The translations under genes were made by a program, and so were the position numbers. Under the pieces are notes generated by a model, which was not told the DNA's origin, ran no database searches, and saw only the letters and a list, made by a program, of their open reading frames with translations. This document shows, one piece after another, positions 1,124 to 16,833 of a stretch of 64,000 nt of DNA. The stretch covers positions 37,449-101,448 of the forward strand of contig JBAYWF010000001.1 of assembly GCA_041674205.1 (NCBI GenBank). The letters are read 5' to 3'. Origin of the DNA: Parcubacteria group bacterium (lineage in GTDB: Bacteria; Patescibacteriota; Minisyncoccia; Moranbacterales; UBA2206). The number at the start of each line of letters is the position of its first letter. Within the stretch, counting starts at the first letter, position 1.

Positions 1124-1142
1124 CTTGGAAATATTAGGCTAA

Positions 1143-1280
1143 TTAAGCCGTTGTAAGCCGTTTCCTGCCCTTAGTCCGCCGTCTTTTCAATACGGCTTGC
1201 CCGGTGGCGGTTTCATTCCTTTTGCGAAAACCGTGCCTGTTTTTTCTTCTTGTGCTGGATGGTTGGTATGTCTGGCTCAT
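1143..1280 (-). CDS. rpmH: 50S ribosomal protein L34
   Basis: Own translation of the minus strand: [45 protein letters not shown] (45 aa), matching the L34 consensus. Too short for the ORF track. Confidence 0.8.
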
Positions 1281-1589
1281 AAGATTAGATTTTTATATAT
1301 ATTATCCTTTAATTAGTCGATATTGACTGATTCCAAGTTTATCAACTATCCTAGTTAAAGTCAACCTAATAGCCCTTTTGCCAAGCGTCGATCGGTCCGC
1401 TTGCGGCGGCACTGAGGAAGCGCAGGCTCTTGATTTATTTATAATTTCATAATATACAGTAATTAGGGTTTTTTATGACTTGCCAACAACTTATCAACAG
1501 ACTTATCCCCACTCTTTCCTTAGACATTCGATTTTCGGCGTGATATACTTCAGTTTACACAATTCTTATTTTTAATCTCAACCTTCCAT
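1281..1589. promoter_or_regulatory. Divergent rpmH / dnaA promoter region with degenerate DnaA boxes (origin region, part 1)
   Basis: AT-rich spacer between divergent rpmH and dnaA. TTATCAACA and TTATCCCCA near 1489-1510 are each one mismatch from TTATCCACA. Confidence 0.45.
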
Positions 1590-2966
1590 ATGACCAATGA
1601 GGAACTTTGGCGGGCCGCTTTAGGGGAAATAGAGCTTTCGATTTCGAAGGCGAATTTCATCACGTGGTTTAAAAACACCTCTATTCTGTCAAATAATGAC
1701 GGCCGCGTCATAATCGGCGTCCCCAACGGATTTGCCAAAGAATGGCTTGAAAACAAATACAATCTCTACATACTCAAGGCGTTGCGAAATATCCAGCCTT
1801 CTATAAAAGAGGTTTCCTGCGCCATAGGCTCCGAAAAAGAAAATGCCTTCCGGGAAAACCAAGTTGACGCGATTATCCCTCCAAAAAGAGTGGTTTTTGA
1901 AAAACCACCGGTCGAAAAAAGCTTTCAAATAAGCCAAGAAAATAACTTGAATTCTAAATATATTTTTGAGAACTTTATCGTAGGTTCCAGTAATGAATTA
2001 GCTCGAGCGGCGTGTTATGCCGTATCGCAAAATTTAGGCCGTATTTATAATCCGCTTTTCATTTATGGCGGCGTAGGTCTAGGAAAGACCCACCTATTAC
2101 AATCCATCGGCAATGAGATTCTTAAAAAAAATCCCTCTAAGAAAGTAAAATACATCACTTCCGAACGCTTCACTAACGAATTGATCGATTCTATCCGGAC
2201 CCAAAAAATAAACGAATTTAAAGAACATTACCAAAAAATCGACCTCTTAATAATCGATGATGTACAATTCCTGTCCGGCAAAGAAAAGACGCAGGAGGAA
2301 TTTTTCCATATATTCAACTATTTATACCAACTAAACAAGCAGATCGTTTTAAGCAGCGACCGCGCACCGAAAGCTATTCCAACCTTGGAAGAGAGGCTTC
2401 GTTCACGTTTTGAGGGCGGAATGATCGCGGATGTTTCAAAAGCTGATTTTGAGACAAGAATGGCTATCTTAAGCAAAAAAGCGGTTGACGAGGGCTTGGC
2501 AATCTCCACTACCGCCCTTGATTTTATCGCCCAAAACATCACTAATAATATCCGCGAATTGGAAGGTGCCTTAAATCGTGTCATTGTGTCATCACAACTT
2601 ACTAATCGGGAACCCACTTTGGATTATGTTTCCGCCCTCTTGTCGGATATCATCGCCAGTGGCAAAAAAAAGGGCATAACCCATAAACACATCATTGACG
2701 CCGTTTCCTCCTTCTATGACATAGACACTGCCGACCTTATTATGAAGAATAGAAAAAAAGAGGTCGTAAAGCCCCGACAGGTGGCGATGTATCTTATGCG
2801 CACCGAGCTCCAATACTCCTACCCGGGGATCGGGGAAAAATTAGGTGGCAGAGATCACACCACCGCCATCCATGCTTATGATAAAATATCTAAAGAATTA
2901 GAATCCAATAAGAAGCTGCTTGAAGAAGTCGCTTCTATTAAGGAGCAACTTTACAATATATCCTAA
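1590..2966 (+). CDS. dnaA: Chromosomal replication initiator protein DnaA
   Basis: 458 aa, AAA+ Walker A GGVGLGKTHLL, and C-terminal DnaA-box-binding domain (RTELQYSYPGIGEKLGGRDHTTAIHAYDKI). Confidence 0.95.
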   Translation: MTNEELWRAALGEIELSISKANFITWFKNTSILSNNDGRVIIGVPNGFAKEWLENKYNLYILKALRNIQPSIKEVSCAIGSEKENAFRENQVDAIIPPKRVVFEKPPVEKSFQISQENNLNSKYIFENFIVGSSNELARAACYAVSQNLGRIYNPLFIYGGVGLGKTHLLQSIGNEILKKNPSKKVKYITSERFTNELIDSIRTQKINEFKEHYQKIDLLIIDDVQFLSGKEKTQEEFFHIFNYLYQLNKQIVLSSDRAPKAIPTLEERLRSRFEGGMIADVSKADFETRMAILSKKAVDEGLAISTTALDFIAQNITNNIRELEGALNRVIVSSQLTNREPTLDYVSALLSDIIASGKKKGITHKHIIDAVSSFYDIDTADLIMKNRKKEVVKPRQVAMYLMRTELQYSYPGIGEKLGGRDHTTAIHAYDKISKELESNKKLLEEVASIKEQLYNIS

Positions 2967-3241
2967 TAACCTGTGGATAAGTTGTATTCCAACCCTTATT
3001 TATCCCTGTGCATATCCTTGGAATTACCCATACCCAGTATGTGCATCTAAAAACAAATGATCAAACCTATTGACTTATTCCACAGACATAAAATTCAGTG
3101 ATAAAATATCAACCTATCAACTTATCCACAGAAAATTTACTTTATATAAGCCCTAAATAACACATATCCCCAGAAATCTAATCCCTATATAATAAACAAT
3201 AAACTTATAAATATTTAAAGATAAATTATTATATTAATACT
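2967..3241. promoter_or_regulatory. DnaA-box cluster plus AT-rich unwinding element (candidate oriC, part 2)
   Basis: Perfect TTATCCACA at 3123-3131 (+) and its reverse complement TGTGGATAA at 2972-2980. Additional near-boxes at 3000-3008 and 3077-3085. Extremely AT-rich stretch 3180-3240 immediately upstream of dnaN. Confidence 0.6.
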
Positions 3242-4396
3242 ATGAAACTAACTTGTACCCAAGAAAATTTTAAAAAAGCTGTCTTTAATTCAGAACGGAT
3301 GGTTTCTAGACAAAATACCCTACCGATTTTAAATAACATCTTATTTGAAACTGAAAATGGAGGATTGAAACTTTCCGCCACTAATTTGGAAATTGGGGTT
3401 TCCGTCCAAATTGGGGCAAAAATAGAAAAAGAGGGAAAAATAACTATTCCAGCTAAGTTTATCAGTAATTTTGTGAATAATCTACCAGCTGGAGAAAATA
3501 TATCATTGGAGGTTATCGATCAAAGCCTTAAAATAAAGAGCGGCTCCTCTAAAGCGATGATAAAAGGCTTATCGGCGGATGATTTTCCTTTAATACCTAA
3601 AAAACAAACTGATTTCGTATTGAATATACCGAGTTTGAAGTTGAAAAATATGATTTCCAAGGTCATCACTTGCGTGGCTTTTAATGAAACTAGACAGGAA
3701 TTGACCGGGGTTAATCTTGTTTTAAAAGAAAAAGAGATTTTATTCGCCTCTACGGATAGTTTTCGTTTGGTCGAAGGCAGTTTGAAATTAAATGAGAATA
3801 ATGTAAGTACTAATTATAAAGATTTTTTAGAAAAAAAAGACACCTTTATTATTCCGGCGAATACTTTTGTCGAATTGGCACGGATTATTTCAAATGACAC
3901 CGAGGATGATATTAAAATCGCCTTTGAAGAGGGGCAAGCCTTTTTTGAAATAGATGGGACAAATGTGGTTTCTCGATTGATTAATGGTAAATATCCGGAT
4001 TACAAACATATCATACCGGTAGAATTTAAGACCAGGGTAGTGGGGGAGAAAAATATCTTCCAAGGAGCGCTTAAAATGTCGAGTGTTTTTTCAAGCGGGA
4101 AGACGAATGAAGTGGCGCTTAAAATTGACGCAGAGGAAAATAAATTCCTAATTGAAGCCAGGAGTGTCGAAGTGGGAGAAAACTCTTCAGAACTCGCTGT
4201 GGATATCACAGGGCTGTCTCAAGAAGTGGTTTTTAATTCCAAATATCTTTTAGATGGGATAAATACGGTCGCGACATCAAAAATCGCTATTCTTGTGAAT
4301 AATGCGTCCTCGCCGGTGGCAATCAAAGAGATTGATGAAAAAACCGGCGAAGTATTGGAAGGATATGTCTATATCGTGATGCCGATAAAAAATTAA
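3242..4396 (+). CDS. dnaN: DNA polymerase III beta sliding clamp
   Basis: 384 aa directly after dnaA with typical DnaN N-terminus (MKLTCTQENFKKAV...) and three-domain length. Confidence 0.95.
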   Translation: MKLTCTQENFKKAVFNSERMVSRQNTLPILNNILFETENGGLKLSATNLEIGVSVQIGAKIEKEGKITIPAKFISNFVNNLPAGENISLEVIDQSLKIKSGSSKAMIKGLSADDFPLIPKKQTDFVLNIPSLKLKNMISKVITCVAFNETRQELTGVNLVLKEKEILFASTDSFRLVEGSLKLNENNVSTNYKDFLEKKDTFIIPANTFVELARIISNDTEDDIKIAFEEGQAFFEIDGTNVVSRLINGKYPDYKHIIPVEFKTRVVGEKNIFQGALKMSSVFSSGKTNEVALKIDAEENKFLIEARSVEVGENSSELAVDITGLSQEVVFNSKYLLDGINTVATSKIAILVNNASSPVAIKEIDEKTGEVLEGYVYIVMPIKN

Positions 4397-4406
4397 AAAC
4401 ATTTTT

Positions 4407-5642
4407 ATGGAAAACGCTTATGGAAACTTTTTGAATTCGCTGAAAATAGTGCGAAATTTAATTTCACTGGAAGATAATATTTATAACCAATTATTGGAGC
4501 CCAAGAGGCTTTTGGAAGTCAATATCCCAGTTAAAATGGATAATGGCAAGATAAAAGTGTTCAAGGGGTTCAGGTCTCACTTTAATGATGCCCGGGGTCC
4601 GTTCAAGGGCGGTATCCGGTTCCATCCCGATGTTTCGTATGATGAAGTGCGGGCGCTTTCCGCTTGGATGTCTATTAAAACCGCCGTAGTCAATATTCCA
4701 TTAGGAGGTGGCAAAGGAGGAGTTATTGTTGATCCAAAAGAGTTATCAGAAAATGAACTGGAAAAACTTTCCCGGGGATATATCAGTGCGATTTATAAAT
4801 TTGTCGGACCGGAATTGGACATCCCGGCGCCGGATATGTATACTGATCCGCGCATAATGGGTTGGATGCTGGATGAATATGAAAAATTGGCCGGACGCCA
4901 TTTGCCCGGAGTGATTACAGGTAAGCCGCTAAGTATCGGCGGTTCGGCGGCGCGTTCATATTCCACGGCGCAAGGCGGATTATATGTTTTGTGGGAAGCG
5001 GTTAAAAAGCTTGGTTTGCCGGATCAGTCTACCGTGGCAATCCAAGGCTTTGGCAATGCCGGATATAATATGGCACAGATTCTTCAAACCAACGGCTATA
5101 AGATTGTCGCAGTCAGTGACTCAAAAGGCACCGTGGTTAATCGTATGGGACTGGATGTGGATGAATTATATAAACATAAACAGAAAACCGGCTCCGTGGC
5201 GAATTATATGGGCGCCGAAGAAGTGGGAATCGCGCATTGTTTCGAGCAGGAAGTGGATATTTTGATTCCGGCGGCTTTGGAAAATTCGATTCACAAGGAC
5301 AATGCCCGCGAAATAAAAGCCAAGCTTATAGTGGAATTGGCTAATGGTCCGATCACGCCCGAGGCGGATGAGATATTAGTTGATATGGGTGTTTTGGTGG
5401 TGCCGGATATTTTGGCGAATGCCGGCGGGGTGACGGTCAGTTATTTCGAGCAAGTGCAGAATGCGTACGGATATTATTGGAGCGAAGAAGATGTTTTGCA
5501 AAAATTGGAAAAGACGATGAGAATCGCCTTTGATGAAATTTGGGCTAAAAAAGAAGAATACAAAACCGATATGCGCATAGCAGCCTACATTTTGGCGGTT
5601 GAACGGATCGCGCAGGCGATGAAAGATCGGGGGATGGCGTAA
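4407..5642 (+). CDS. gdhA: Glutamate dehydrogenase (Glu/Leu/Phe/Val dehydrogenase family)
   Basis: 411 aa with the glycine-rich catalytic motif NIPLGGGKGGV and an NAD(P)-binding Rossmann segment GFGNAG. Confidence 0.9.
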   Translation: MENAYGNFLNSLKIVRNLISLEDNIYNQLLEPKRLLEVNIPVKMDNGKIKVFKGFRSHFNDARGPFKGGIRFHPDVSYDEVRALSAWMSIKTAVVNIPLGGGKGGVIVDPKELSENELEKLSRGYISAIYKFVGPELDIPAPDMYTDPRIMGWMLDEYEKLAGRHLPGVITGKPLSIGGSAARSYSTAQGGLYVLWEAVKKLGLPDQSTVAIQGFGNAGYNMAQILQTNGYKIVAVSDSKGTVVNRMGLDVDELYKHKQKTGSVANYMGAEEVGIAHCFEQEVDILIPAALENSIHKDNAREIKAKLIVELANGPITPEADEILVDMGVLVVPDILANAGGVTVSYFEQVQNAYGYYWSEEDVLQKLEKTMRIAFDEIWAKKEEYKTDMRIAAYILAVERIAQAMKDRGMA

Positions 5643-5662
5643 AACTGACATTTTTAATAAAA

Positions 5663-5696
5663 AATTCCGGTTAAAAAACAGCCGGAATTTTTTTAT
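5663..5696 (+). terminator. Rho-independent terminator after gdh
   Basis: AATTCCGG-loop-CCGGAATT hairpin followed by a T7 run. Confidence 0.7.
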
Positions 5697-5838
5697 CACT
5701 ACAAAATATTAAAAAAGTGCGCGGAATTAAATTTTCGGTAAATTATTCCATAAATTTATATCTTTCTTTATCCATTTGATTTGTTATATAATATAAACAT
5801 ACTGGAAAATTGGATAATTTTAAAGTATATTTTTTAAA

Positions 5839-6567
5839 ATGCTCGCAAAGACTTTGCAAAAACTCGGTCTGAATGAAAAAGAAGCCAAGGCGTATCTGGC
5901 AGCTTTGGAATTGGGTGAAACCACCTTGCAACGGATAGTTGCGAAATCTGGCATCAGCCGCACCACTATATATGATGTTCTCGAGTCATTAAAACAGCGA
6001 GGCTTGGTCAGTACCGTGAAAAAAAGTAAAAAACTTTATTATTATGCCGAAGAGCCTGATTCTTTGCAGAATGAATTGGACGAAAAACAGGATCTTTTGA
6101 AAAAAGCGATGCCGCAACTTTTGGCGATGGCTAATCTGATCGATTGCAAGCCGAAAATAAAATATTACGAAGGATTGGAAGGACTCAAGGAGGTGTATAT
6201 GGATTCTTTGCATTATCCGGAAAAAGAAATTTTGTCCTGGGTGGCGGAGGAGGCTTTCTATGAATTTGACAAGGACTTTTTATTGAATTTTTATCATCCG
6301 CGCCGCATCAAGCAAAAAATATGGTCGCGTGAAATCGCCTCCGACCATCCTTTGACGCGCGAATATCAGCAAGAGGAAATCAGCGGTTTGCGCAAAACCA
6401 AGATTTTACCCGCGAAGGAATTTCCGATGGATGTCAGCATCAATCTTTATGGCAAAAACAAAATCGGTATTATGTCATTCGAGGAGGAAATCGGTTTGAC
6501 TATGGAAAGTGAAAAAATCCACATTACGCTCAAAAGCTTATTCGAATTTATGTGGGGGAAAATCTAA
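5839..6567 (+). CDS. TrmB-family HTH transcriptional regulator (paralog 1 of 3)
   Basis: N-terminal LGLNEKEAKAYLAALELGETTLQRIVAKSGISRTTIYDVLESLKQRGLV winged-helix. Same architecture as the ORFs at 21366-22109 and 38053-38802. Confidence 0.75.
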   Translation: MLAKTLQKLGLNEKEAKAYLAALELGETTLQRIVAKSGISRTTIYDVLESLKQRGLVSTVKKSKKLYYYAEEPDSLQNELDEKQDLLKKAMPQLLAMANLIDCKPKIKYYEGLEGLKEVYMDSLHYPEKEILSWVAEEAFYEFDKDFLLNFYHPRRIKQKIWSREIASDHPLTREYQQEEISGLRKTKILPAKEFPMDVSINLYGKNKIGIMSFEEEIGLTMESEKIHITLKSLFEFMWGKI

Positions 6568-6592: not shown

Positions 6593-6621
6593 AATAATTG
6601 ACGGCTAAAAGGCCGTTTTTT
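6593..6621 (+). terminator. Terminator hairpin, copy 1 of an identical 29-nt repeat
   Basis: AATAATTGACGGCTAAAAGGCCGTTTTTT (stem ACGGC/GCCGT, T6). An identical 29-mer recurs at 10750-10778. Confidence 0.7.
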
Positions 6622-6634
6622 ATTAACCAGAAAA

Positions 6635-7200
6635 ACCACCGGCGCTAGCCGGTGTGTCCGTTTAGAACGTAGCTCTTGGGTTACAATAAAATCACCAATC
6701 TAGAAAGGAGGTGATTTTTATTATGGTAACTCACAAAGTCTACCAACTTAGTCACTGCACATATATTTGCCAATATCACATAGTTTGAGCTTCGCGATAC
6801 CGGGGCAAAGTACTGGGTGACAATTACACTAAACAAGAACTTAAAAGAATATTCAAGTTCATTGCCAATTAGAAAGGCCTAATGCTTGTCCAGTGGCACA
6901 TAGGAGACGAGCATAGGCATCTGTATTTGATAATACCTCCAAAATATTCAGTTTCATATATCATTTGTATTCTCAAAACTAAGTCGTCCACTTGGATAAA
7001 GAAAAAGATTAAGAAGTTTCCCAAAGGCTTTCTTTGGGGCAGAGGATACTTCGTTTCTACGATCGGTATCAATGAATTTGCCATCCGAGCGTATATCTAA
7101 AACCAAGATCATCGAAAAGTAGAGTTGGATAACCTTCAATTGTTTTAGCCGTCGTTAGACGGCAGGACAGAAACCACTAGTGGTTGAGCTGGCGGTTTTC
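6635..7200 (+). mobile_element. Decayed IS200/IS605-family insertion sequence (tnpA-only type)
   Basis: Subterminal hairpins at both ends: CCGGCGCTAGCCGG at 6639-6652, GCCGTCGTTAGACGGC at 7148-7163, and the palindrome AACCACTAGTGGTT at 7172-7185. RBS AAAGGAGGTGAT (6704-6715) lies inside an ATCACC...GGTGAT inverted repeat, as in the RBS-occluding hairpin of IS200. Internal tnpA is disrupted. Confidence 0.6.
6723..7100 (+). pseudogene. tnpA: IS200-like TnpA (HuH Y1 transposase) pseudogene with stop and frameshifts
   Basis: Fragments in three frames match IS200 TnpA in order: HCTYICQYHIV(stop), RYRGKVL...LKRIFKFIAN(stop), then MLVQWHIGDEHRHLYLIIPPKYSVS...KTKSS...GRGYFVSTIG. These cover the HuH and catalytic-Tyr regions but are not in one reading frame. 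Confidence 0.65.
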
Positions 7201-7236
7201 ATTTTGTATTTGCTATAATGAAATTAACAAGCGTAA

Positions 7237-8877
7237 ATGGAACTTATGAAAGAAAAAATACAATCATATAATCTAGAGAAAGCAGAAAATGAGGCCGCAG
7301 AAATACATGGTCTTATTAATGATGATTTGGCGGTGGATTATGAAAATGCTGGTGCGGTGATTGAAATTAATAAAGATATTCAGGCAGAGGTTGTTGAGGC
7401 ATCTCGGGAAAATCTTGGGGTGACTAAAAAAGAGACGTCGCCGAAGAGCTATTTGGTAATTCAAGAAAAACCTGCACAAAAGCATAATTATTCACCAGAA
7501 GCATTAAATGAGATAGTTAATATTCAAAGAGAAGACATTAGCAAGAAGTATAGTAGTCAATTAAAACAGAGCGAGGATCTTTATGCGGAACTTTTATTTC
7601 AAGCAGAGAACATGAGTGAATGGCAAAAAAGGCAAGAAAAAAAGACTATTCATAAATTAAAAAAAATATTCAGAATAAGGAGTGCTGATACTACTAAAAT
7701 CAAAGAAGAGTTAATTCAAATTAATAATAAGATTAAAGAGGCTTATATTGAAATCGAAATTATTAAAATAAAAATAAAAGCCGAAGAGGTTCTGGGGGAT
7801 ATTTTGAAAATTAGAGCAGACTTACCGGTTTTGTCAGAACAAGATTTTAGATATAATCCATATAAGGCAAAAAAATATACCGATTTTAACGTGTTTGAGC
7901 ATAATATGGAAATAATAAATAGAATGAGTAAAATAATATTGGCAATGAAGCAACTTGACGTCAGTACTGATGAAATAGAAGCAGAATATAATTCGTTTCA
8001 AAATTATTACCAGAAAATAAATATTATAAGCGAAGCTGTAAAATTAGCAATTGCTCAAATCGAACGTGAGTTGTGGAATTGTGAAATTTCACCCGAAAGA
8101 AATATATCTGTAGATGAAACAAGACAGAATATGCTAAGTATCTGCAGGAAATCTGAGCAGTATGCAGACGGACTGTGGAATTTGGATGAAATTGCCAAGA
8201 GCACAGCTGATGAATTAGTAGTACATATTAACACAAATGGATCAGGGCGGTGCTTTTTACACAGTTTTCCGGAGATCAGTATTGAAAATGGTTACATAAC
8301 GACTAGCATGGGTGCTGGTGAAAATTTTAAACATGTTAGGGGTGACTCACGCTGCTGGATAAATTTTTCGTGCGAATCAAGCGTTTCAGGGTATGATAAA
8401 TCGTTTTATGGCACTTTAAATACAAAACTGTCCGGAGGGGTTTATTATCCAGCTGAGGTGATTTTGGAAAACTACCCTTTTATAAATTTGCCGTATGATG
8501 ATGGAAAAGATCATGCAAAAATTTGGACATCTTCGGAATGGCGATCTTATGCGCCACGTGATAATGCAAAGAGTAAATTTCACCGTATACCATTGAATTT
8601 GGGCATATGTTTTTTTTCGTTAGACGATAGGGATACAGTCGAAAAATACATTAATGCCTTGCCCGATAGTCAAAAACCAAATAAAATAATTTGGTATAGC
8701 GGTCAGGAGGAAGTGGAAGCTTTGACGAGCTTGTTGAAAAAAATTAAGACCCCGGATGACTTGCCACATCTCACAAGTCCAATTAAAATAATTCAAGTTG
8801 ATGATGGCTTGACGATGTTTGGTACCGATAAAACAAAACGAATTTTTGACGAAGAAATGGCGGAAGTTAAAGCATAA
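7237..8877 (+). CDS. Large hypothetical protein, coiled-coil N-terminal half plus Cys/His-containing C-terminal globular domain (paralog A)
   Basis: 546 aa ORF, no recognisable family. C-terminal region shares short motifs with the next ORF (KPNKIIWYSG vs KPNKIVYYEGS; ELVVHINTNGSG vs EMVTHVTRQG). Confidence 0.6.
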   Translation: MELMKEKIQSYNLEKAENEAAEIHGLINDDLAVDYENAGAVIEINKDIQAEVVEASRENLGVTKKETSPKSYLVIQEKPAQKHNYSPEALNEIVNIQREDISKKYSSQLKQSEDLYAELLFQAENMSEWQKRQEKKTIHKLKKIFRIRSADTTKIKEELIQINNKIKEAYIEIEIIKIKIKAEEVLGDILKIRADLPVLSEQDFRYNPYKAKKYTDFNVFEHNMEIINRMSKIILAMKQLDVSTDEIEAEYNSFQNYYQKINIISEAVKLAIAQIERELWNCEISPERNISVDETRQNMLSICRKSEQYADGLWNLDEIAKSTADELVVHINTNGSGRCFLHSFPEISIENGYITTSMGAGENFKHVRGDSRCWINFSCESSVSGYDKSFYGTLNTKLSGGVYYPAEVILENYPFINLPYDDGKDHAKIWTSSEWRSYAPRDNAKSKFHRIPLNLGICFFSLDDRDTVEKYINALPDSQKPNKIIWYSGQEEVEALTSLLKKIKTPDDLPHLTSPIKIIQVDDGLTMFGTDKTKRIFDEEMAEVKA

Positions 8878-8953
8878 AAAGGATTTACCGGATTTTGAAT
8901 AATAGTCGCTCAATCTCCCTAAAATTAGCATAAGTTAATAAAGCAGACTTAGT

Positions 8954-10732
8954 ATGGAGAAAATACCCCGATTTATAAAAGAATTTTCTAAAAAAGAATC
9001 TTCAGAAGAAAGAAATGAAGCTGCTCGCGCGATAAAAGAAAAGCGAGCCAATCATTTTGATAAAAAAAATGCTCTGACTGACGAGTCTAAAAAAATAAAG
9101 GAAGTTGTAGGTATTAATGATCAAAAAATGAGTGAGCAACTTGAATTAATTCAGGGCTTAGAAAACACACTTGTCGAATTATCAAATTCTGGACTGAAAA
9201 AATTGATGAATTATTTTCATCTCAAGAAATTGCAGGCCGACATTGCTGTTGGAGAGAAAACATTTGAAGAACTAAAACAAAGACAGGAGGTGGTGAATTT
9301 GCAACTGCAAAAAACATACGTCGAAGTTGAATCGCAAAAAAGGGCACCGGAGCTAGAGGAGTCAAAGGTAATACTACAAAGCTTTTATAAAGGACAAAAT
9401 GAAAAATGGGCGGAAAGTGATTATTTAAAAGAGGATATAAAAAAATATTTCTCTGAAGAACATCTTGCCTCTCTCTCTATCGAGGACTATGCTTTGTTGT
9501 TGCGACGGTTTCCAGGTGAGATGGTGACACATGTGACTCGTCAGGGTATTCGAGATCATGTTGGACATATATATCACACTGCGGGCGATGGCGCTTATTC
9601 TAATGGTTTTATGAGAATGGTTGATGATGGAAGACTTCGTTCGCCACTGGGTCTATGCTTGACAGAAGTCGAGAAGGAACAATCTATTGCCAAATATTTG
9701 AATCTCGCTAAATATAAAGACAAAAACGAAGCACTTGATGTTTTAAATACAATAACGACTGAGAAACAAGGCGAGCCCGGAAGTTTTTCAGATAGAATGG
9801 CAATTCATTTTGCTACCGAAGAAGTAGCTGACTGTTATTATGGTTCTGAGAAGGGTAACGAAATCTTTATTATATTTCCTTCGGCACATGTGGCCTCTCA
9901 ATATTATTTTAGTGGACAAAGTGGAAGCTTGAATCGTTCGGGTGGAGGATATTGGAACGATCAGTGGGTTTGGGCAAATGAAGAGAGAGGGATGGATTTA
10001 AATGCTGGGCTAGTGTTTATACCCAAAGAAGTGCGGGTAAATAGAATAACTGGCTCGAGATACGAACTTGATGAAAATAAAACACCCAAACAAAATCGAT
10101 TATTCCATTCTATTATTGAAAAATTTACGTGCCTACCTGATTTTCATTTAATTGCGAGGCAAATAATGGAAATCACAGGAAAGTTTACTCAAGAATTAAA
10201 TATATCTGATATTTCGCCAAGTGATCAAGAATTATATAAAAAATTAAAACCGTTAATTGATTCACTTGAAAAATGCGGTATTCTAGATACCAGGATGCAA
10301 CTTTTATTACTCGACTATCGCAATATTTGTTCACTTGATATATACAAAGATGTGGAAGAGCGAGGCATAAGAGAGCCAATTCATACGATGGATGTCGTAA
10401 TAGGTAGTGTTCTTAAAAAGGGCGGCATTTTATTGTCGGAAGCGAAAGATACTTGTAGCTCTAAAGAATTCTGGGAGTCCTATTTTGCCAAAAATGTAGG
10501 GAAAAAACCAAATAAAATTGTGTACTATGAAGGTAGTAGTCCGACATATGCTTTCTTGAAATGGAGGAAGGAGCAAAATATAACTAAAAAAACTAAAGAC
10601 GAAAATATTGGTTTTCCAGATCATCATATTCAACGTGATCATGCGCAAGCTATTGCTGGGATGGATCGATTTAGGTTGCTTGCTGAGGAAGTGATTGAAA
10701 AATATTTTGCAAAAAAGAAGAGAAAAAAATAA
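8954..10732 (+). CDS. Large hypothetical protein, coiled-coil N-terminal half plus C-terminal globular domain (paralog B)
   Basis: 592 aa ORF in tandem with paralog A, K/E-rich coiled-coil N-terminus, lysine-rich tail, no recognisable domain. Confidence 0.6.
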   Translation: MEKIPRFIKEFSKKESSEERNEAARAIKEKRANHFDKKNALTDESKKIKEVVGINDQKMSEQLELIQGLENTLVELSNSGLKKLMNYFHLKKLQADIAVGEKTFEELKQRQEVVNLQLQKTYVEVESQKRAPELEESKVILQSFYKGQNEKWAESDYLKEDIKKYFSEEHLASLSIEDYALLLRRFPGEMVTHVTRQGIRDHVGHIYHTAGDGAYSNGFMRMVDDGRLRSPLGLCLTEVEKEQSIAKYLNLAKYKDKNEALDVLNTITTEKQGEPGSFSDRMAIHFATEEVADCYYGSEKGNEIFIIFPSAHVASQYYFSGQSGSLNRSGGGYWNDQWVWANEERGMDLNAGLVFIPKEVRVNRITGSRYELDENKTPKQNRLFHSIIEKFTCLPDFHLIARQIMEITGKFTQELNISDISPSDQELYKKLKPLIDSLEKCGILDTRMQLLLLDYRNICSLDIYKDVEERGIREPIHTMDVVIGSVLKKGGILLSEAKDTCSSKEFWESYFAKNVGKKPNKIVYYEGSSPTYAFLKWRKEQNITKKTKDENIGFPDHHIQRDHAQAIAGMDRFRLLAEEVIEKYFAKKKRKK

Positions 10733-10749
10733 AAAAATTATGCAAATCC

Positions 10750-10778
10750 AATAATTGACGGCTAAAAGGCCGTTTTTT
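10750..10778 (+). terminator. Terminator hairpin, copy 2 of the identical 29-nt repeat
   Basis: Identical to 6593-6621, also preceded by TGCAAA. Confidence 0.7.
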
Positions 10779-10935
10779 GCTATTGAAAATAATGCCTATG
10801 ATTAGCCAAATAATAGTAATATGAAACCTGTAATTAACTTAATTTACATAATTTAGGACTTTTTATTCGGATTGTGCTAGTATGCACTGTTGCGATGGAG
10901 ACGAAAGTTCTTTAAAAACACAACGAGGTGCTGGT

Positions 10936-11109
10936 ATGCCAAATAAATGCCGTTTTTCCGATCAGGAATGTGTGGGTGTTGCAAGCGAACGCGGCGAGAT
11001 GATTTGCAAGGATTGTAAAATATTGCGAGTGAAAGCGCGGAAGGTAGAAGTCTTTATTCGGCAATGGAAACCGAGTAATCTCGCAATCGCGGCGGCGAAA
11101 GAGAAATAA
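10936..11109 (+). CDS. Small Cys-containing hypothetical protein (possible zinc-ribbon)
   Basis: ATG at 10936 preceded by GAGGTG. MPNKCRFSDQECVGV...ICKDCKILRV has a Cys-x7-Cys...Cys-x2-Cys arrangement. Weak evidence. Confidence 0.3.
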   Translation: MPNKCRFSDQECVGVASERGEMICKDCKILRVKARKVEVFIRQWKPSNLAIAAAKEK

Positions 11110-11249
11110 ATCAAATACTGACCACCTCATGTCATAAAACGGAGTCGTAATATCACGGGGTAGCTCCGTGACGCCATTTCAGAGCGGACACCTGAAAACT
11201 TGCGTTGGAGGCCGATAAGACGCGAGATAATGTTTCGGCGAGGAGGAAG

Positions 11250-11580
11250 TATGAGAAAAATAGCCACTATTATTGGGTTAGCAGTGCTTACGGGCTGGCT
11301 GATGGTTATGGTGTCGAGTTATTTGATTAACATGTCGGCGGATGATATGCAAAAATGTGAGAATTTTGTAAGCGGTAGGAGGTGGGTAATTGTGTCCAAA
11401 GATTTTGTTGGACACAAGTATAGCACCTCGGTCGTATTCGTAATGAAGGAAGGGGCTGACAGTATCTCAGTTGAAACGAGTTCAGAAAAAGACTTCGTCT
11501 TCTTTCCAGGAGAATATGTCCAGCTTGAAATGAAGAAGGGTATGAAGGAATCATGCGTGTATGAAATAACGCATGAATAG
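11250..11580 (+). CDS. Small membrane-anchored hypothetical protein
   Basis: MRKIATIIGLAVLTGWLMVMVSS N-terminal TM/signal segment, strong RBS GAGGAGGAAGT upstream, terminator downstream. Confidence 0.45.
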
Positions 11581-11590
11581 TATTTAGCAA

Positions 11591-11624
11591 AGCGGGAAGC
11601 TCATTGCAGTTCCCGCTTTTTTTA
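11591..11624 (+). terminator. Rho-independent terminator
   Basis: AGCGGGAA-loop-TTCCCGCT followed by a T7 run. Confidence 0.7.
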
Positions 11625-11804
11625 TTTGTCGAAAAGGGATTTTTAGAGAGTAAGTAGTAATCGGTGAGTATTTCACCCTATGATATTGGCTTGCGGATAA
11701 AAAGTAGAGAGATAATAAAAATTATCAGATATGCAGTTATTGGCAGCTTCAAAGGATCTGATATTGTCAGTGAGGTTTAATATGTCAGCAAAGGAGCATT
11801 ACTT

Positions 11805-12143
11805 TTGTTCGAACGGAATTTTGGCTTGCTTAAACCTCGGTTTTTTACTATGCTAGATAGCATGAAATCCCTCAAAAACTATCTGGCTAAAAGGAACGTT
11901 TTCCAACCCAAGACGCTGGATGACCAGACGGTTTTTTATGTTTTCCGCAAGGTCATCAAGGAGGAATTCGGCAATGTGGGGATCGAGAAGCTGATCCCGG
12001 ATTATTACAATAACAAAACTATCTTTATTAAATCGGACAGCTCGGCTTGGTCCGCCGAGATGTGGTTGCAAAAGGATCGGATCGTCCGCAAGATGAACGT
12101 CGAATTGGGCGAAGGATCAATCGAGAAGATAAAAGTCAAATAA
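11805..12143 (+). CDS. DUF721 / DciA-like protein (replication-associated family)
   Basis: TTG start with AAGGAG RBS 8 nt upstream. C-terminal SDSSAWSAEMWLQKDRIVRKMNVELGEGSIEKIKV matches the DUF721 pattern (SSxWxxEL...LGxxxIxxIxF). The family is typically found near dnaA/dnaN. Confidence 0.55.
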   Translation: MFERNFGLLKPRFFTMLDSMKSLKNYLAKRNVFQPKTLDDQTVFYVFRKVIKEEFGNVGIEKLIPDYYNNKTIFIKSDSSAWSAEMWLQKDRIVRKMNVELGEGSIEKIKVK

Positions 12144-12175
12144 AAAAAGCCTTGGACAATCCAAGGCTTTTTTTG
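12143..12175. terminator. Bidirectional terminator between convergent genes
   Basis: GCCTTGGA-loop-TCCAAGGC flanked by an A-run upstream and a T-run downstream. Confidence 0.7.
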
Positions 12176-12181
12176 GGCATA

Positions 12182-14761
12182 TCAGGGAATTGAAACGATG
12201 TTGGTATGGATCGTGATGTTCGTACTTTTTGACTTGTCGTTTTTATCGACGGCGACAGCCTTGATTTCCAGGTCGGACGTCTTTTTGTCATCAGGTATGG
12301 AATAAGTGTAGCTTAAAGATGAGTCATCCTTGGAAGATACTTCGTCACCGTCGATATAGAGGGTTATCTTGTCTATATCGAAGGCGGAGGAAGCTGCGGC
12401 TTTGATCGTGACAGTGTTGGAAGTTACGGTTGCTCCGTTGGAGGGAGAGGTTATTTTTACTTTCGGAGTGATGTCGGAAAAATCATCAGATTCGCATTTT
12501 TTGGTAGGCGCGGGGTCATTGGAAAGGTCCTTGTCTTTCTCGGCATATTTTTGGACGGCCTTTTCCCAATTTTTAAATTGCGGATCGTCTTCCGGGTCTT
12601 TAGGGTAGTCTCCGCGCGGGTCATCCTTTTTGACATACCACAGGATGGAATGGGCAGAAAAGAATTTTTTCTTAGTTTTAAGACTGTCCGGGCAAGCGTC
12701 GGTGGCTAGGCAGTAATCATCGTTTTTATCAGGTATTTCGCAGACCTCGATTTTTTCTTCCGGGTCGAGTTTGCCGTTCAAGATCGGCTTGCCGGCATCT
12801 TCCGGTTCGTATTTCGGAAATTGCTCCACATTGTAGTTTTTTAAGGCGCCATCCATAAATTTCCGCCAAATCGGAGCGGCTACGAAAATTCCATCCGCAC
12901 CTTTGGCCATCGTGGAATTGTCGTTGTTGCCCGCCCAAACACCGACTACGAGAGACGGGGTATATCCCATCGCCCAACCGTCACGCCATTCATTGGTAGT
13001 TCCGGTTTTGGCGGCTACGGATCGGTCGGTGAAATTGAAGGGATTGTTGGTTCCAAAAACCGGAGCGCGCAATGAGTTGGTGGACATCACGTAATCAAGC
13101 ATAGACACATATTTTTCGTCGATGACTCTTTGGCCCGGGTCATTTTGGTATTCCTCGAGGATTTTTCCGGAGGAATCGGTTATTTTCAGGATGGCGGTCT
13201 TGTCATGGTGGATTCCTCCGGTTGCCAGGGAACCATAGGCATTCGTATGGTCAAGTAGTGTCACTTCGCCGCCGCCCAATACCAATGAGAGTCCATAATC
13301 GAAAGACTTGTCCAGAGTGGTTATGCCAAGAGCCTTGGCGGTCGTGATGGAATCCTGGACTCCGGCTAGATAGAGCGTTTGGACAGCGGGAACGTTCAGT
13401 GACATCGCCAGCGCATCTTTCATTTGGAGTAGCCCGTGGTTTTTCCCGTCATAGTTTTTCGGATTATAGCTTTTTCCCGAATCGGTTGAAAAATCGGTGT
13501 CTACGTCCCACATCTGGGTTTCTGGAGTGTAGCCTTTTTTGAAAGCTGTCAGATAGACATATGGCTTGAAAGATGATCCAGGCTGGCGGTTCCGGATAGT
13601 GACATTGACTTGGCCGTCGATGGATTTGTCGAAATAATCCTTGCTGCCTACCATCGCCAATATTTGTCCGGTACGCGGATCCATCGCGACCATCGCGGCA
13701 TTCTCAGCTCCGTATTTTGCCGTATTGGACGTCGCGCCTTCTTTGACCGCTTGTTCGGCTAATTGTTGTTTATCCCAATCGAGAGTGGTGTAAACCTTGA
13801 GGCCACCCTGTTCCAATGCTTGCTGGCCATAGGTTTTTTCCAGATATTCCTTGATGTACATCACGAAGTGCGGTGCGGAAATATTTTCCGAAGAGGGCCG
13901 TATTTTTGCCAGGATGTCGACCTCTTTGGCCGCCGCGGCTTGTTCCTGGGAAATATAGCCTAATTTTTCCATTTGGGTCAGCGCATACACCTGTCTGCCT
14001 CGCAAGGCGTCGGAGTTATTCCCATAAGGGGAATAGTAAGAGGGTGCTTGGGGCAGGGCAGCTAAAAGGGCCGCTTCGTCAAGGGAAAGTTCTGAGGCGT
14101 GTTTGCCGAAAAAAGTTTGCGCGGCCGCTTCGATGCCATAGGCGTTGGAGCCGTAGGGGATTTCATTGAGGTACATTGCTAATATTTCATCCTTGGAAAA
14201 TTTAAGCTCTATTTCGATAGCCAGAATCAGTTCCTTGATCTTGCGGGAAAGCGATCTTTCGTCGGTAAGGATGGAATTTTTAACGAATTGCTGGGTAATC
14301 GTCGAGCCGCCCCGTCCGCCTCCTCGGCGCAAGACGTTTGAAATTACGGCATTGGCCAAACCGCGCACATCAAATCCAGGATGGTGGTAGAAGTTCTGGT
14401 CTTCCAGGGAGATGGTGGCATATTTGATGGCGTCCGGCATATCCGTGAATTGGATTTGCGTTCTCTTTTCTTCGCCGTGGATGTCATAGAGCAGGTGGTC
14501 GCCGGTGCGGTCGTAAATCTTGGTTGATTCCGTCACGACCCGTTTGCTGATTCCGTTGGCACTGGGCAAGTCTTTGGCGAAATAGGCGAAAATGCCTAAA
14601 ACCAGAAGCGCGGAAAAGCCCGCCGCATAGGCGCTGATTTTGCCAGCCATCCGCCAGCGGTTTTTGCTGGAGGCATATTTGAAATTTCTTAGGGGGGAGA
14701 ATATCTTGTCCATAAAATATGATATTTTAAAATATGGCCAAATAAGGCCTTTTGCAACCAT
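12182..14761 (-). CDS. Bifunctional class A penicillin-binding protein (PBP1A; transglycosylase + transpeptidase) with C-terminal Ig-like extension
   Basis: GT51 motif EDQNFYHHPGFDVRG, transpeptidase SSFKP and KTGT motifs, N-terminal TM anchor. True start may be the internal ATG (MDKIFSPL, about 14713). Confidence 0.9.
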   Translation of the reverse strand: MVAKGLIWPYFKISYFMDKIFSPLRNFKYASSKNRWRMAGKISAYAAGFSALLVLGIFAYFAKDLPSANGISKRVVTESTKIYDRTGDHLLYDIHGEEKRTQIQFTDMPDAIKYATISLEDQNFYHHPGFDVRGLANAVISNVLRRGGGRGGSTITQQFVKNSILTDERSLSRKIKELILAIEIELKFSKDEILAMYLNEIPYGSNAYGIEAAAQTFFGKHASELSLDEAALLAALPQAPSYYSPYGNNSDALRGRQVYALTQMEKLGYISQEQAAAAKEVDILAKIRPSSENISAPHFVMYIKEYLEKTYGQQALEQGGLKVYTTLDWDKQQLAEQAVKEGATSNTAKYGAENAAMVAMDPRTGQILAMVGSKDYFDKSIDGQVNVTIRNRQPGSSFKPYVYLTAFKKGYTPETQMWDVDTDFSTDSGKSYNPKNYDGKNHGLLQMKDALAMSLNVPAVQTLYLAGVQDSITTAKALGITTLDKSFDYGLSLVLGGGEVTLLDHTNAYGSLATGGIHHDKTAILKITDSSGKILEEYQNDPGQRVIDEKYVSMLDYVMSTNSLRAPVFGTNNPFNFTDRSVAAKTGTTNEWRDGWAMGYTPSLVVGVWAGNNDNSTMAKGADGIFVAAPIWRKFMDGALKNYNVEQFPKYEPEDAGKPILNGKLDPEEKIEVCEIPDKNDDYCLATDACPDSLKTKKKFFSAHSILWYVKKDDPRGDYPKDPEDDPQFKNWEKAVQKYAEKDKDLSNDPAPTKKCESDDFSDITPKVKITSPSNGATVTSNTVTIKAAASSAFDIDKITLYIDGDEVSSKDDSSLSYTYSIPDDKKTSDLEIKAVAVDKNDKSKSTNITIHTNIVSIP

Positions 14762-14992
14762 AAGCTGGATGCTGTGAAGTCAGTTAGTATTCTACGATAA
14801 TTCCGGGTTTTTATCAAGCCCGCCGGCAGGGATGTTTTCTGGTGTCTGAATCTTGCAGGCATCTTTGATTTTATCCAAAAACTTCAAAGTTTATGAGGTT
14901 CAGACTAAAATCAAGCAATTAAAGCGATATATTTTTCCAATAAAAAATGAGCTTGTGAAAGCCCATTGATATTGCGGATAAAAAAACTAACA

Positions 14993-15937
14993 CTAAGCGT
15001 CCGCCAAACGCTCAAGGGAATCGAGCACTGACTCTATGAAAATGGGAGAATTTTTCATTTTTTCCGACGGGAAACCGATTTGGTCATTCAACTCAAAAAC
15101 AAAAAGTTCGCTCTTGTTCTGGATGCCAAGGTCGATGGAATAGATTGGACGGTTGAATTTTTTATCGATGCGCGCTTGTATTTTTTTCACGCTATCAAGG
15201 ATGGATGCCGGGATATTTTCAAGTGGGATTTCCCTGATCGATCCGCCTTGGGCGACGTTGGCCAGAAGCGATCCTTCTTTGGGCGCGCGTACATGGCTCA
15301 AGACGATTTTGCCGTCCACGATTATTATCCGCAGATCATGGTGTCCGTCGATGATTCCGGGGATTCCGGCGGACGTGTCGACGAATTCTTGCAAAATATA
15401 TTCGCGGCCGTTTTTGATTTCCTCGCGCATTATTTTTTCCGGATAATCAATCACGATTCCTTGGCCACACATCCCGTTGGCAGGCTTGAGCACGGTCAGT
15501 GCGGACGGAGAAAACGATTCCAATTGCCGCGATAGGCTGGCCTTATCTTTGATCCGTGCGCTTTTAGGCATAAAATCGCCGATAAATTCCTGGGTCGCGT
15601 TCTTATTGTTGCACAATCTTTTGAAACGGATGTTGTTTAAAACTTTGGAGCTGATGTCTTCAATCGGGAAAGACATCCCGCCGCTCCGATCGAAAACGGC
15701 GTCCGCTTGTATGTCTTCCTTTTCCGGTTCAAAGAACTCCCCGGTGTAGTGATAGGCGCCGGAAAAAGTCAGCAGTCCCGTTTGTGTGTTTTTCCCGCTG
15801 GCGATATACATATCGAAACCTCTTTTCAGACCGCGTTTAAAAAAGTCGTGATAGACGGCTCTTTTTGGGCCGAAGGTGGAAAAAGGATCGCTTTCCATCT
15901 TGCGCCTGCTGAAATACATGACTATTTTTTTTCGCAT
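14993..15937 (-). CDS. ATP-grasp superfamily amidoligase (RimK / glutathione-synthetase-like), paralog 4 of the cluster
   Basis: 314 aa. ATP-grasp C-terminal half: LKPANGMCGQGIVI, ILQEFVD, HDLRIIIVDGKIV, FVFELNDQIGFP. 16-nt overlap with the upstream gene. Confidence 0.7.
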   Translation of the reverse strand: MRKKIVMYFSRRKMESDPFSTFGPKRAVYHDFFKRGLKRGFDMYIASGKNTQTGLLTFSGAYHYTGEFFEPEKEDIQADAVFDRSGGMSFPIEDISSKVLNNIRFKRLCNNKNATQEFIGDFMPKSARIKDKASLSRQLESFSPSALTVLKPANGMCGQGIVIDYPEKIMREEIKNGREYILQEFVDTSAGIPGIIDGHHDLRIIIVDGKIVLSHVRAPKEGSLLANVAQGGSIREIPLENIPASILDSVKKIQARIDKKFNRPIYSIDLGIQNKSELFVFELNDQIGFPSEKMKNSPIFIESVLDSLERLADA

Positions 15938-16833
15938 CCGGTTAAATATTCAGCTAATTTTTTAATTTCAGGTGAGATCTTGGTATCTAGCGTGAGAGTC
16001 GGACAGCTATTAACCTCGAATATTACGGGACTTCCATCCGGCCGTTCGATGATGTCCACGCCGGCGACTTGGATATGCGTCGTTCGGGCTGCCAAAACAG
16101 CTTCTTTTTTAAGGTGGCTGCCGACCGTGGAGATATCTACGAATTCTTCAGTCGCTCCCAGATGCACGTTGTTCCGGAAAGCTTCTTTTTCAGAGCGGAT
16201 TTTTTTCTCAGTTACGGCCACTTTGCTTCCGGTCACAAGGATCCGATATTCAAAATCATTGGGGATGAATTCTTGCAGGAAAATTTCCTTGCGGTCATCC
16301 TGGCTGGATCTTTCCAAAATGATTTTTTCCAGCTCGCTGATATTCTTGGCCAAAAAAACGCCCGCCCCTTGCGAAGAGTTGCATTCCTTGATCACGATCG
16401 GCAGCTTCAGATATGCTATGGCATTGCGCAGATGTTTTTTCGGATAGGAGCCCGCGAAATAAGTTTTAGGGATGGAGATTCCTGCCGATGCCAGACGGAA
16501 CATCTGGATTATCTTGGCGGCATCGGACGCGTCCTTGTTTTGTTCATGGTAGCGGTCGATCAGATTGACTCCGGACTCTTTCGATACGTGGGCCAGCATA
16601 TGGGCGACACCTCGGTTCCTGCCAACCTTCCTGATATAAATAGTGCTCCAAGCCGTCACCGGTTTCCCGCAAATCGACAATCCGATCTTGTTTTTTTCTA
16701 TTTGAATTTCGGTCTCTTCCAAACTGGAAACGGAAAAATCCACTCCTTTCCGGGCGAGTTCGGCGCCGGTCAGGCGTAAAAATTTTTTCATTTTCGGTCC
16801 GGTCTTCTTCTTGTTTTTTAATATCAGTAACAT
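15922..16833 (-). CDS. RimK-like ATP-grasp (alpha-L-glutamate ligase family)
   Basis: 303 aa. LPIVIKECNSSQGAGVFL, LQEFIPNDFEYRILVTGSKV, EVNSCPTL, typical of the RimK/LysX group. Confidence 0.75.
   Translation of the reverse strand: MLLILKNKKKTGPKMKKFLRLTGAELARKGVDFSVSSLEETEIQIEKNKIGLSICGKPVTAWSTIYIRKVGRNRGVAHMLAHVSKESGVNLIDRYHEQNKDASDAAKIIQMFRLASAGISIPKTYFAGSYPKKHLRNAIAYLKLPIVIKECNSSQGAGVFLAKNISELEKIILERSSQDDRKEIFLQEFIPNDFEYRILVTGSKVAVTEKKIRSEKEAFRNNVHLGATEEFVDISTVGSHLKKEAVLAARTTHIQVAGVDIIERPDGSPVIFEVNSCPTLTLDTKISPEIKKLAEYLTGCEKK

Follow-up and report, generated by a model that had tools for sequence, protein, structure and literature searches.

What are the two large proteins encoded side by side just downstream of a trmB-family regulator gene, not far from dnaA and dnaN, in a Parcubacteria group bacterium (Patescibacteriota; Moranbacterales), and how did their genes come to be there? 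We consider this question for a 64,000-nt stretch of contig JBAYWF010000001.1 (assembly GCA_041674205.1, positions 37,449 to 101,448 of the forward strand), hereafter called the window, in whose own numbering positions are given. The two open reading frames (ORFs), ORF-A and ORF-B, belong to an AT-rich islet bracketed by two copies of a terminator hairpin. Our preferred reading, to which we would assign a probability of roughly 0.55, is that the islet is an insertion with mobile accessory cargo in which ORF-B would be a DarT-fold NAD+-dependent transferase, with nucleic acid as its likeliest target. The features on which the argument depends are, from left to right:

5839..6567, plus strand: trmB-family regulator gene, left flank (Pfam TrmB, E 1e-18)
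6593..6621, plus strand: left 29-nt direct repeat, a hairpin (6600-6617) with a T-run that acts as the trmB terminator
6622..10749, plus strand: inserted AT-rich islet, 4128 bp, without counterpart in the syntenic relative L095
6637..6654, unstranded: GC-rich hairpin 5' of the insertion sequence (IS) IS200 relic (-9.3 kcal/mol, z -4.0)
6723..7100, plus strand: IS200-type Y1 transposase pseudogene with two in-frame stops (Pfam Y1_Tnp, PF01797, E 4.5e-26)
7149..7185, unstranded: two small hairpins, GCCGTCGTTAGACGGC and AACCACTAGTGGTT, 3' of the IS200 relic
7237..8877, plus strand: ORF-A, 546 aa, intact (WC120_00205)
8954..10732, plus strand: ORF-B, 592 aa, intact (WC120_00210)
10750..10778, plus strand: right 29-nt repeat, the ancestral terminator hairpin, whose orthologue occurs once in L095

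Much of this had been anticipated by the original prediction, which was made from the letters of the stretch and described two ORFs of these lengths and positions with N-terminal parts rich in lysine and glutamate (K/E), an IS200 relic, two identical 29-nt hairpins and AT-rich codon usage. All of it holds. Residues 1-200 of ORF-A are 27% K+E and residues 1-154 of ORF-B 30.5%; the repeat, AATAATTGACGGCTAAAAGGCCGTTTTTT, occurs as exactly two copies in the 64 kb, in direct orientation, where 0 are expected, each copy being a 7-pair hairpin followed by a T-run, with identity that breaks off sharply at both edges. GC content at third codon positions (GC3) is 0.298 in ORF-A and 0.288 in ORF-B against 0.55±0.07 in the 28 other window genes, and the islet as a whole has a GC content of ~0.35 against 0.445 for the window. 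The islet is compositionally foreign.

The insertion itself is seen by comparison with a relative. An exact look-up of the TrmB protein for an empty site returned the same contig only; the comparison came instead through the closest orthologue, 87% identical, whose contig, L095, runs colinear with the window at ~83% nucleotide identity. Window positions 7-5753 correspond to L095 1411-7162, 5835-6567 (trmB) to 7997-8729 at 81%, 10751-11195 to 12142-12591, and 11826-14889 to 13241-16313. The homology ends at the trmB stop codon (6567/8) and restarts at the first base of the right repeat (breakpoint 10751). Between trmB and the hairpin L095 has two unrelated genes, of 591 aa and 463 aa (likewise AT-rich, GC3 0.31 and 0.36), neither of which is similar to ORF-A or ORF-B; the 591-aa gene was considered as an ORF-B orthologue and rejected for this reason. 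Because L095 is colinear on both sides with unrelated genes in between, the islet is an insertion at a hotspot: the 3' site of trmB has received different cargo in two relatives. Because a single orthologous hairpin (GATAGTTGACGGCCAAAGGGCCGTTTTTT) is present in L095, with the downstream sequence of the window after it, the right repeat is ancestral and the left copy the duplicate. Positions 6622-10749 are a horizontally acquired segment near the replication origin, lodged at a variable site that separates trmB from its terminator and lies downstream of dnaA-dnaN by ~2.6 kb; the 29-nt hairpin may have been doubled by the insertion itself or by a later event, and the cargo consists of a dead IS200 transposase gene and two intact proteins of soluble, cytoplasmic type. 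The accessory, mobile-element character suggested for the pair earlier is borne out by the missing segment in L095, the foreign composition and the IS200 relic. A role as surface protein, suggested along with it, does not fit: neither protein has a hydrophobic stretch (maximum Kyte-Doolittle 19-residue value, KD19, 0.68 for ORF-A and 1.17 for ORF-B), and the N-termini are highly charged, unlike signal peptides.

Two further observations concern the L095 insert. A 155-nt duplication of the 3' end of trmB (8563-8717 and 10483-10637, 88% identical) flanks the 591-aa gene on both sides, and the 463-aa gene (10678-12069, minus strand), which has no Pfam match, contains the strings FCHGFS and LYNELVI that by eye resemble ADP-ribosyltransferase motifs.

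Could the IS200 element have been the vehicle? IS200 elements are ~0.7 kb long, and to our knowledge they make no 29-nt target duplications. The islet resembles an IS200/IS605 element in that it holds a Y1 transposase relic with hairpins on either side, of which the one at 6637-6654 is possibly an IS200 end structure and the pair at 7149-7185 a possible right end. It is nevertheless not such an element carrying cargo: it has no intact Y1 transposase, the gene being dead by its two in-frame stops, and it is bounded by a 29-nt direct repeat, of which the copy on the right belongs to the ancestral sequence of the host. More probably the relic came along as a secondary passenger. We likewise rejected the idea that the 29-nt repeats might be ends of IS200 or a repeat common throughout the genome, given their two copies in 64 kb and the orthologous host origin of the right one; a search for the hairpin in metagenome contigs gave no match.

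The behaviour of the ORF-B family elsewhere points in the same direction as the locus itself. At 90% identity the family falls into more than 400 clusters, each of them without a name or called 'hypothetical'; they are uniformly ~590 aa long and show full-length identities of 45-58% (57-58% for the nearest relatives of ORF-B). We retrieved 80 genome loci, most of them titled as Patescibacteria: Jorgensen-, Taylor-, Nomura-, Kaiser-, Moran-, Wolfe-, Falkow-, Magasanik-, Uhr-, Davies- and Berkelbacteria. Three metagenome-assembled genomes carry a copy at two loci; a second copy in the same genome as the window (L008) is 52% identical and AT-rich, with a GC3 of 0.31 against about 0.53 in its neighbours. 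Across the family, GC3 lies below that of the flanking genes in 60 of 70 loci (median difference -0.06; z below -2 in 23 loci). In 7 of 64 loci the family gene lies between the two copies of a direct repeat (25-63 nt, 82-100% identical, scoring at least 37 bits), as opposed to 0 of 139 control genes similar in length (Fisher p 2.4e-4), a count that mixes true target duplications with reused regulatory repeats. The repeats differ by locus and are host sequences, namely the rodA 3' end (L065), the 3' part of an MGMT-like gene (L008) and terminator-like hairpins (L084 and the window), and the unit they enclose is often the ORF alone with 0-60 nt on each side. Such bracketing is not specific to ORF-B, as L095 and L065 show it around unrelated cargo too. 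The loci have no conserved neighbour; even the commonest neighbour family is found in at most 8 of 81. That family is a type IV secretion coupling protein (VirD4/TraG/TrwB-like; Pfam T4SS-DNA_transf, TrwB_AAD_bind, TraG-D_C), within ~3 kb of the ORF-B homologue in 8/81 loci, an enrichment that is apparent, against an assumed background rate; it is directly adjacent in four (L036:3105-5987, L011:4675-7404, L032:11798-14572 and L018:9860-11668). The window contains no type IV secretion gene. We also considered a functional link between trmB and ORF-B, as a 242-aa TrmB lies near ORF-B copies in three contexts, and rejected it: TrmB is near ORF-B in only 5/89 loci, and the apparent proximity arises because TrmB paralogues are abundant, the window itself having three (5839-6567; 21390-22097, minus strand; 38053-38769), the latter two 40% and 27% identical to the first.

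Some of the bracketed loci deserve description in their own right. At L065:6845-10284 the last ~40 nt of rodA/ftsW occur three times in direct orientation (6910-6949, 8389-8428, 10237-10276), separating two inserts, one with small unknown ORFs and the other with the ORF-B homologue only; copies 2 and 3 agree at every position (100%), the changes in copy 1 are mostly synonymous, and at the left junction of the ORF-B insert the stop codon for the reading frame comes from the insert. The L008 paralogue is bracketed by a 50-nt, 84%-identical direct repeat (7698-7747 and 9960-10009), the right copy of which lies inside the 3' part of the MGMT-like gene. At L053:9752-19951 a 62-nt element (CTTGCCTTTTCGGCCCGGAGGGGTATGGTGGAGGTG...AAAAAGGTACCTGA) occurs six times in 10 kb among mostly unknown genes and an IS3-type transposase, and again at L051:246-308 and 2342-2404; it contains a promoter-like pair, TTGCC(T/C)-N17-TATGGT, and may be a reused promoter or a cassette boundary.

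What, then, might ORF-B do? Its predicted parts are as follows:

8954..9415, plus strand: residues 1-154, antiparallel coiled-coil hairpin (helices 17-77, 87-130 and 132-154), preceded by a conserved P.FIKEFSKE
9509..10078, plus strand: residues 186-375, ADP-ribosyltransferase-like core
10097..10420, plus strand: residues 382-489, helical domain without ORF-A counterpart
10421..10729, plus strand: residues 490-592, C-terminal alpha/beta part with a KRP[SN]KIVYY.G motif and a final helix

Sequence comparison gives this protein no name. Scans of ORF-A and ORF-B against Pfam, NCBIfam, PADLOC and PHROGs gave no match, and neither did Pfam scans of their sub-domains, the isolated core having none even at E <= 10; sequence searches of PDB, by profile and with the isolated core, returned keratin coiled-coil noise or nothing. 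We turned to an AlphaFold model, built with 43 homologues, with a mean predicted local distance difference test score (pLDDT) of 86.0 over the full length and, for residues 155-592, a pLDDT of 87.4 and a predicted template modelling score of 0.85. Residues 6-154 are modelled as one long helical hairpin with a pLDDT around 90, in agreement with the coiled-coil N-terminus proposed earlier, and in structure searches the full-length model finds coiled coils only. The core has strands at 190-196 (H193-V-T195-R196), 284-288 (H285), 303-309 (E303), 336-340, 353-357 and 361-363, and a helical insertion at ~231-282. The four chains that match it best in structure, out of 48,164, are DarT proteins, each from a different organism; Tpt1 and an ADP-ribosyltransferase effector come next, and the top 60 include DarT1, DarT2, M. 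tuberculosis DarT, three chains of Tpt1 and the Salmonella effector 7dn9; Foldseek against PDB found nothing at E <= 0.001. As modelled, the core has the central split beta-sheet of the ADP-ribosyltransferase fold, and the repeated matches to several distinct families of that fold suggest a place in the superfamily at the level of fold.

The conserved residues fit this picture in part. Twenty residues are invariant in 73 homologues, down to ~30% identity (H193, V194, T195, R196, R200, D201, H202, H208, H285, Y296, G297, E299, N302, E303, F355, P357, G367, S368, W507 and Y525), although HVTRQG.RD and YGSE.GNEI also served as locus-search patterns, so that the invariance is partly built in; the protein-based alignment is unbiased. 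D336 is conserved in 93% and E343 in 70%, and the R227/R229 loop has Arg in 60-70%, with Lys as the commonest alternative. Such conservation is at odds with the earlier view of a rapidly evolving, highly diverged protein without catalytic signature, as far as ORF-B is concerned. The strings AIHFATEE...YYGS and GNEIFII resemble what we take to be the PARP motifs GIYFAD...Y and YNEYIVY. Set against the H-Y-E triad, H193-x-T195 is invariant, the middle position would be H285 or Y296, and E303 is invariant with atypical spacing. DarT1 holds the adenosine ribose with H17 and T19, both on strand 1; its NAD+ loop comprises N48, D49, R52 and D54, its catalytic Glu is E152, and S63 takes the place of the Tyr (PMC11543638). 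With 176 added throughout, DarT1 H17, T19 and D49 fall on ORF-B H193, T195 and D225, and R52 falls between R227 and R229; from this we infer a residue correspondence between the two proteins. We propose that in ORF-B the strand with the invariant H193-x-T195 and the loop D225-G-R-L-R-S would bind NAD+, and that an invariant acidic residue would serve in the transfer of ADP-ribose, E303 being the best candidate and D336 and E343 the alternatives. Because the best structural matches, DarT and Tpt1, act on nucleic acids, the likeliest target would be DNA, RNA or something bound to them. The coiled-coil arm may dock the target or mediate oligomerisation.

Let us be clear that ORF-B is not a member of the DarT family. 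DarT, the toxin of the DarTG system, is a thymidine- or guanosine-specific ADP-ribosyltransferase of single-stranded DNA (ssDNA; Pfam DUF4433), to which ORF-B has no detectable sequence similarity. What they appear to share is the H-x-T on the first strand (H17-F18-T19 in DarT1), an acidic/Arg loop ~32-36 residues further on (D49/R52 in DarT1) and, in ORF-B, an invariant Glu at the start of a hydrophobic strand. In contrast to the single domain of ~200-220 aa in DarT, ORF-B has 592 aa, about three times the length, in four structural parts, adding a 150-aa coiled-coil hairpin, a ~50-aa helical core insertion and ~210 extra C-terminal residues; it appears to have a His at the Tyr position; its family is confined to Patescibacteria; and its loci have neither a DarG macrodomain or NADAR partner nor any conserved neighbour (<=8/81). 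The family behaves like stand-alone accessory genes that move horizontally, presumably with a conflict or effector function, and neither like housekeeping genes nor like a two-gene toxin-antitoxin system. The effector or toxin role named in the original prediction is still possible and can be put more specifically, as the predicted fold is closest to that of the DarT toxin.

ORF-A bears on these proposals through its relationship to ORF-B. Its parts are:

7237..7836, plus strand: K/E-rich N-terminal extension, ~residues 1-200, without counterpart in relatives
8353..8628, plus strand: core block, residues 373-464, with INFSCE, FYG, YYPAEVILENYPF, SSEW and LNLGICFF, defined by hhalign and shuffles
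8638..8745, plus strand: tail block, residues 468-503, with a ..P..KPNKII.Y.G motif, homologous to ORF-B 507-541

The two proteins had been taken for paralogues, duplicated in tandem. Homology is supported by two blocks, colinear between the proteins. The core block (ORF-A 373-464, ORF-B 283-360) scores 25.8 against 13.5±2.5 (maximum 24.2) for 200 column shuffles, none of which reaches it, and pairs INFSCE with IHFATEE, FYG with YYG, YYPAEVILENYPF with IIFPSAHVASQYYF, SSEW with NDQW and LNLGICFF with LNAGLVFI; the tail block (468-503, 507-541) scores 38.1 against 12.2±2.4 (maximum 21.1; 0/200 shuffles; 85% probability) and contains the previously proposed pair KPNKIIWYSG/KPNKIVYYEGS, which is real. 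The other proposed pair, ELVVHINTNGSG/EMVTHVTRQG, does not stand: within the ORF-A family His330 is not kept, and the two segments fall opposite each other in none of the profile alignments. Recent tandem duplication is rejected as well, since BLASTP gives 27 bits (E 0.001) at the C-terminus only, whole-length hhalign 29-38% probability, and for each protein far closer relatives exist elsewhere. The K/E-rich N-terminal regions show no similarity to each other, ORF-B has two helical insertions that ORF-A does not (about residues 231-282 and 366-495), and in no other examined locus do the two stand side by side. Judged by the profile alignments, ORF-A and ORF-B are distant homologues from two long-separated families, which would share an ancient catalytic core and a C-terminal beta-alpha-beta unit.

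The ORF-A family is much the rarer sister: 5 matches among 5.8 billion proteins and 9 clusters at 50% identity, with members of ~390-410 aa, so that the first ~150-200 residues of ORF-A are an orphan extension. Its nearest relatives are 33-46% identical, and in both long-flank loci the relative is a stand-alone gene among housekeeping genes. An exhaustive hidden Markov model search with the family (1.84 billion representatives) reached no ORF-B relative and returned the 9 family members and three giant proteins of 1439-3085 aa that contain a complete ORF-A-type domain (hhalign probability 97.9%, E 4e-13), two of which, P0131 and P0132, also bear S-adenosylmethionine-dependent methyltransferase domains. 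At two positions the giant proteins are nearer to ORF-B than ORF-A is (VHFS and D[DN]W, also RPNKIFYY.G); with an ORF-A-type domain and ORF-B-like motifs, they bridge the two families. Since ORF-A has no acidic residue at the position equivalent to E303, its chemistry may differ. Three single observations may be added. The third giant protein, P0133 (L092:8001-12320), is encoded just upstream of an MNT/HepT toxin-antitoxin pair and two genes downstream of one for nicotinate phosphoribosyltransferase, an enzyme of NAD+ salvage. One of three ORF-A-family loci, L090:351-1541, has a flanking direct repeat (33 nt, 88% identical). At L007:7827-9171 the homologue P0005 is broken by a frameshift, as are several other genes on that contig, and the split is probably a long-read assembly error and not a sign of a pseudogene.

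How much weight can the proposed chemistry bear? Besides the partial circularity of the invariant residues, several points speak against it. No sequence method ties ORF-A or ORF-B to any ADP-ribosyltransferase family or solved structure; the canonical Tyr position appears to be a His (H285); the catalytic acid is ambiguous, with only 18 residues from H285 to E303 versus ~89 between the DarT1 equivalents; and ORF-A has no acid in the E303 column. A constitutively active DarT-like enzyme without antitoxin should, moreover, be toxic to its own cell, which could be tolerated through auto-inhibition by the coiled coil or the C-terminal domains, through a foreign target or through a different chemistry. 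This last is a possible though doubtful alternative, in which the fold is right and the family is a derivative that needs no NAD+ or is no transferase: a 2'-phosphotransferase like Tpt1, an NADase, a pseudo-enzyme that binds nucleotides or nucleic acids, or a factor with a structural or regulatory role whose cleft serves for binding only. The unusual triad and its spacing, the missing Glu of the sister family, the loci without antitoxin or hydrolase partner, and Tpt1 among the structural matches would all suit it. However, the invariant H-x-T and the Arg-rich loop at DarT-like spacing suggest NAD+ binding, and 20 invariant residues, polar or aromatic, would be expected in an enzyme sooner than in a scaffold. 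As to Tpt1/KptA in particular, the NAD+-dependent RNA 2'-phosphotransferase with an ADP-ribosyltransferase fold, ORF-B matches no Pfam model, that of Tpt1 included, has another domain architecture, and gives structural scores far below those for DarT.

It is unlikely that the resemblance to DarT is the coincidence of a small alpha/beta sandwich, with ORF-B a new enzyme, for example a His/Asp/Glu hydrolase or nuclease, or something unrelated. The empty Foldseek result, the want of a profile match to any family and the many invariant His residues (H193, H202, H208, H285) would agree with this, but chance would hardly put one superfamily repeatedly at the head of the list, with DarT in all four top places and Tpt1 and an effector behind it, nor the H-x-T on the first core strand as in DarT1. 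We hold it very unlikely that ORF-B is a housekeeping factor specific to the candidate phyla radiation and passed on by vertical descent, docking by its arm on the ribosome, tRNA or RNA polymerase, with meaning in its proximity to dnaA, dnaN and dciA. The 45-58% identity across classes at uniform length, the frequent housekeeping neighbours and the likeness of the coiled-coil hairpin to the arms of seryl-tRNA synthetase and prefoldin could be read in this way, yet the syntenic L095 locus has no ORF-B, the position of the gene is not conserved, its GC3 is far under that of host genes in most genomes, some genomes have two copies, and repeats flank copies of it. The slimmest chance of all we give to the reading in which ORF-B itself mobilises a compact element of one gene, with duplication of 25-60 nt at the target. 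Seven loci do have a repeat-bounded unit of 1.67-2.26 kb holding only the ORF-B-family gene, five of them with 0-60 nt of non-coding sequence on each side, the repeats vary between loci, and DarT-type enzymes act on ssDNA. Against this, unrelated cargo is bracketed alike (the L095 591-aa gene, the first insert of L065 and the L053 array with its promoter-like repeat), no terminal inverted repeats or conserved ends were found, we know of no recombinase with an ADP-ribosyltransferase fold, and the unit in the window also includes IS200 and ORF-A.

The association with type IV secretion and with giant proteins invites one more comparison, with the polyvalent proteins of phages and conjugative elements, whose domains are also found in solo form next to genes of type IV secretion (Iyer, Burroughs & Aravind 2017, PMC5512222). 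The ORF-A-type domain embedded in 1439-3085-aa proteins, two with methyltransferase domains, and the ORF-B genes that adjoin coupling proteins are reminiscent of these. In contrast to them, P0133 lies among chromosomal-type genes, there is no PHROG match, the methyltransferases of the giant proteins are of generic class I, and the window is without a type IV secretion gene. One might go further, at long odds, and imagine ORF-B, perhaps also ORF-A, as autonomous single-gene mobile cassettes, in which an ssDNA-directed DarT-like enzyme with a ~9-nm coiled-coil arm would drive its own insertion or homing at gene 3' ends and terminators, duplicating 25-60 nt; or, in a milder form, as antitoxin-less nucleic-acid ADP-ribosyltransferases delivered into hosts through type IV secretion by epibiotic bacteria. 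The cassette scenario, if true, would amount to a mobility mechanism without known precedent. Our search of the literature for ADP-ribosyltransferases in Patescibacteria found nothing relevant.

For completeness, the local gene order from 5' to 3' is dnaA, dnaN, glutamate dehydrogenase, the TrmB regulator, the islet, two small ORFs, dciA and a penicillin-binding protein:

1590-2966: dnaA
3242-4396: dnaN
4407-5642: glutamate dehydrogenase gene
11805-12143: dciA
12182-14761, minus strand: class A penicillin-binding protein

The small ORFs neighbouring the islet have no Pfam match; one, a Cys-rich ORF of 75 aa just 3' of it (10882-11109; CC, C..C, C..C), is conserved in sequence in L095. The GC3 of dnaN, 0.35, is unusually low for the genome and likewise low in the L095 orthologue (0.39), and most likely reflects the gene itself and no transfer. 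A 104-nt direct repeat, 78% identical (29306-29409 and 30647-30750), lies inside a 1011-aa ORF (28654-31689, minus strand) and is probably an internal protein repeat.

A large part of bacterial diversity falls within the Patescibacteria, and for most protein families specific to their lineages no function has been assigned. Returning to our preferred reading of ORF-B as a DarT-fold transferase, it would link one large and well-conserved family without a domain model to a testable chemistry, NAD+-dependent ADP-ribosylation of the DarT type, in a family that behaves as mobile accessory DNA and not as core machinery. Among nucleic-acid ADP-ribosyltransferases, a DarT-like enzyme that has a long coiled-coil arm and no antitoxin would represent a new architecture, and ORF-B would be a candidate weapon or defence in an epibiotic lifestyle. 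Irrespective of the chemistry, repeat-bounded accessory cassettes at gene 3' ends may bear on how small, integrase-poor genomes acquire genes.

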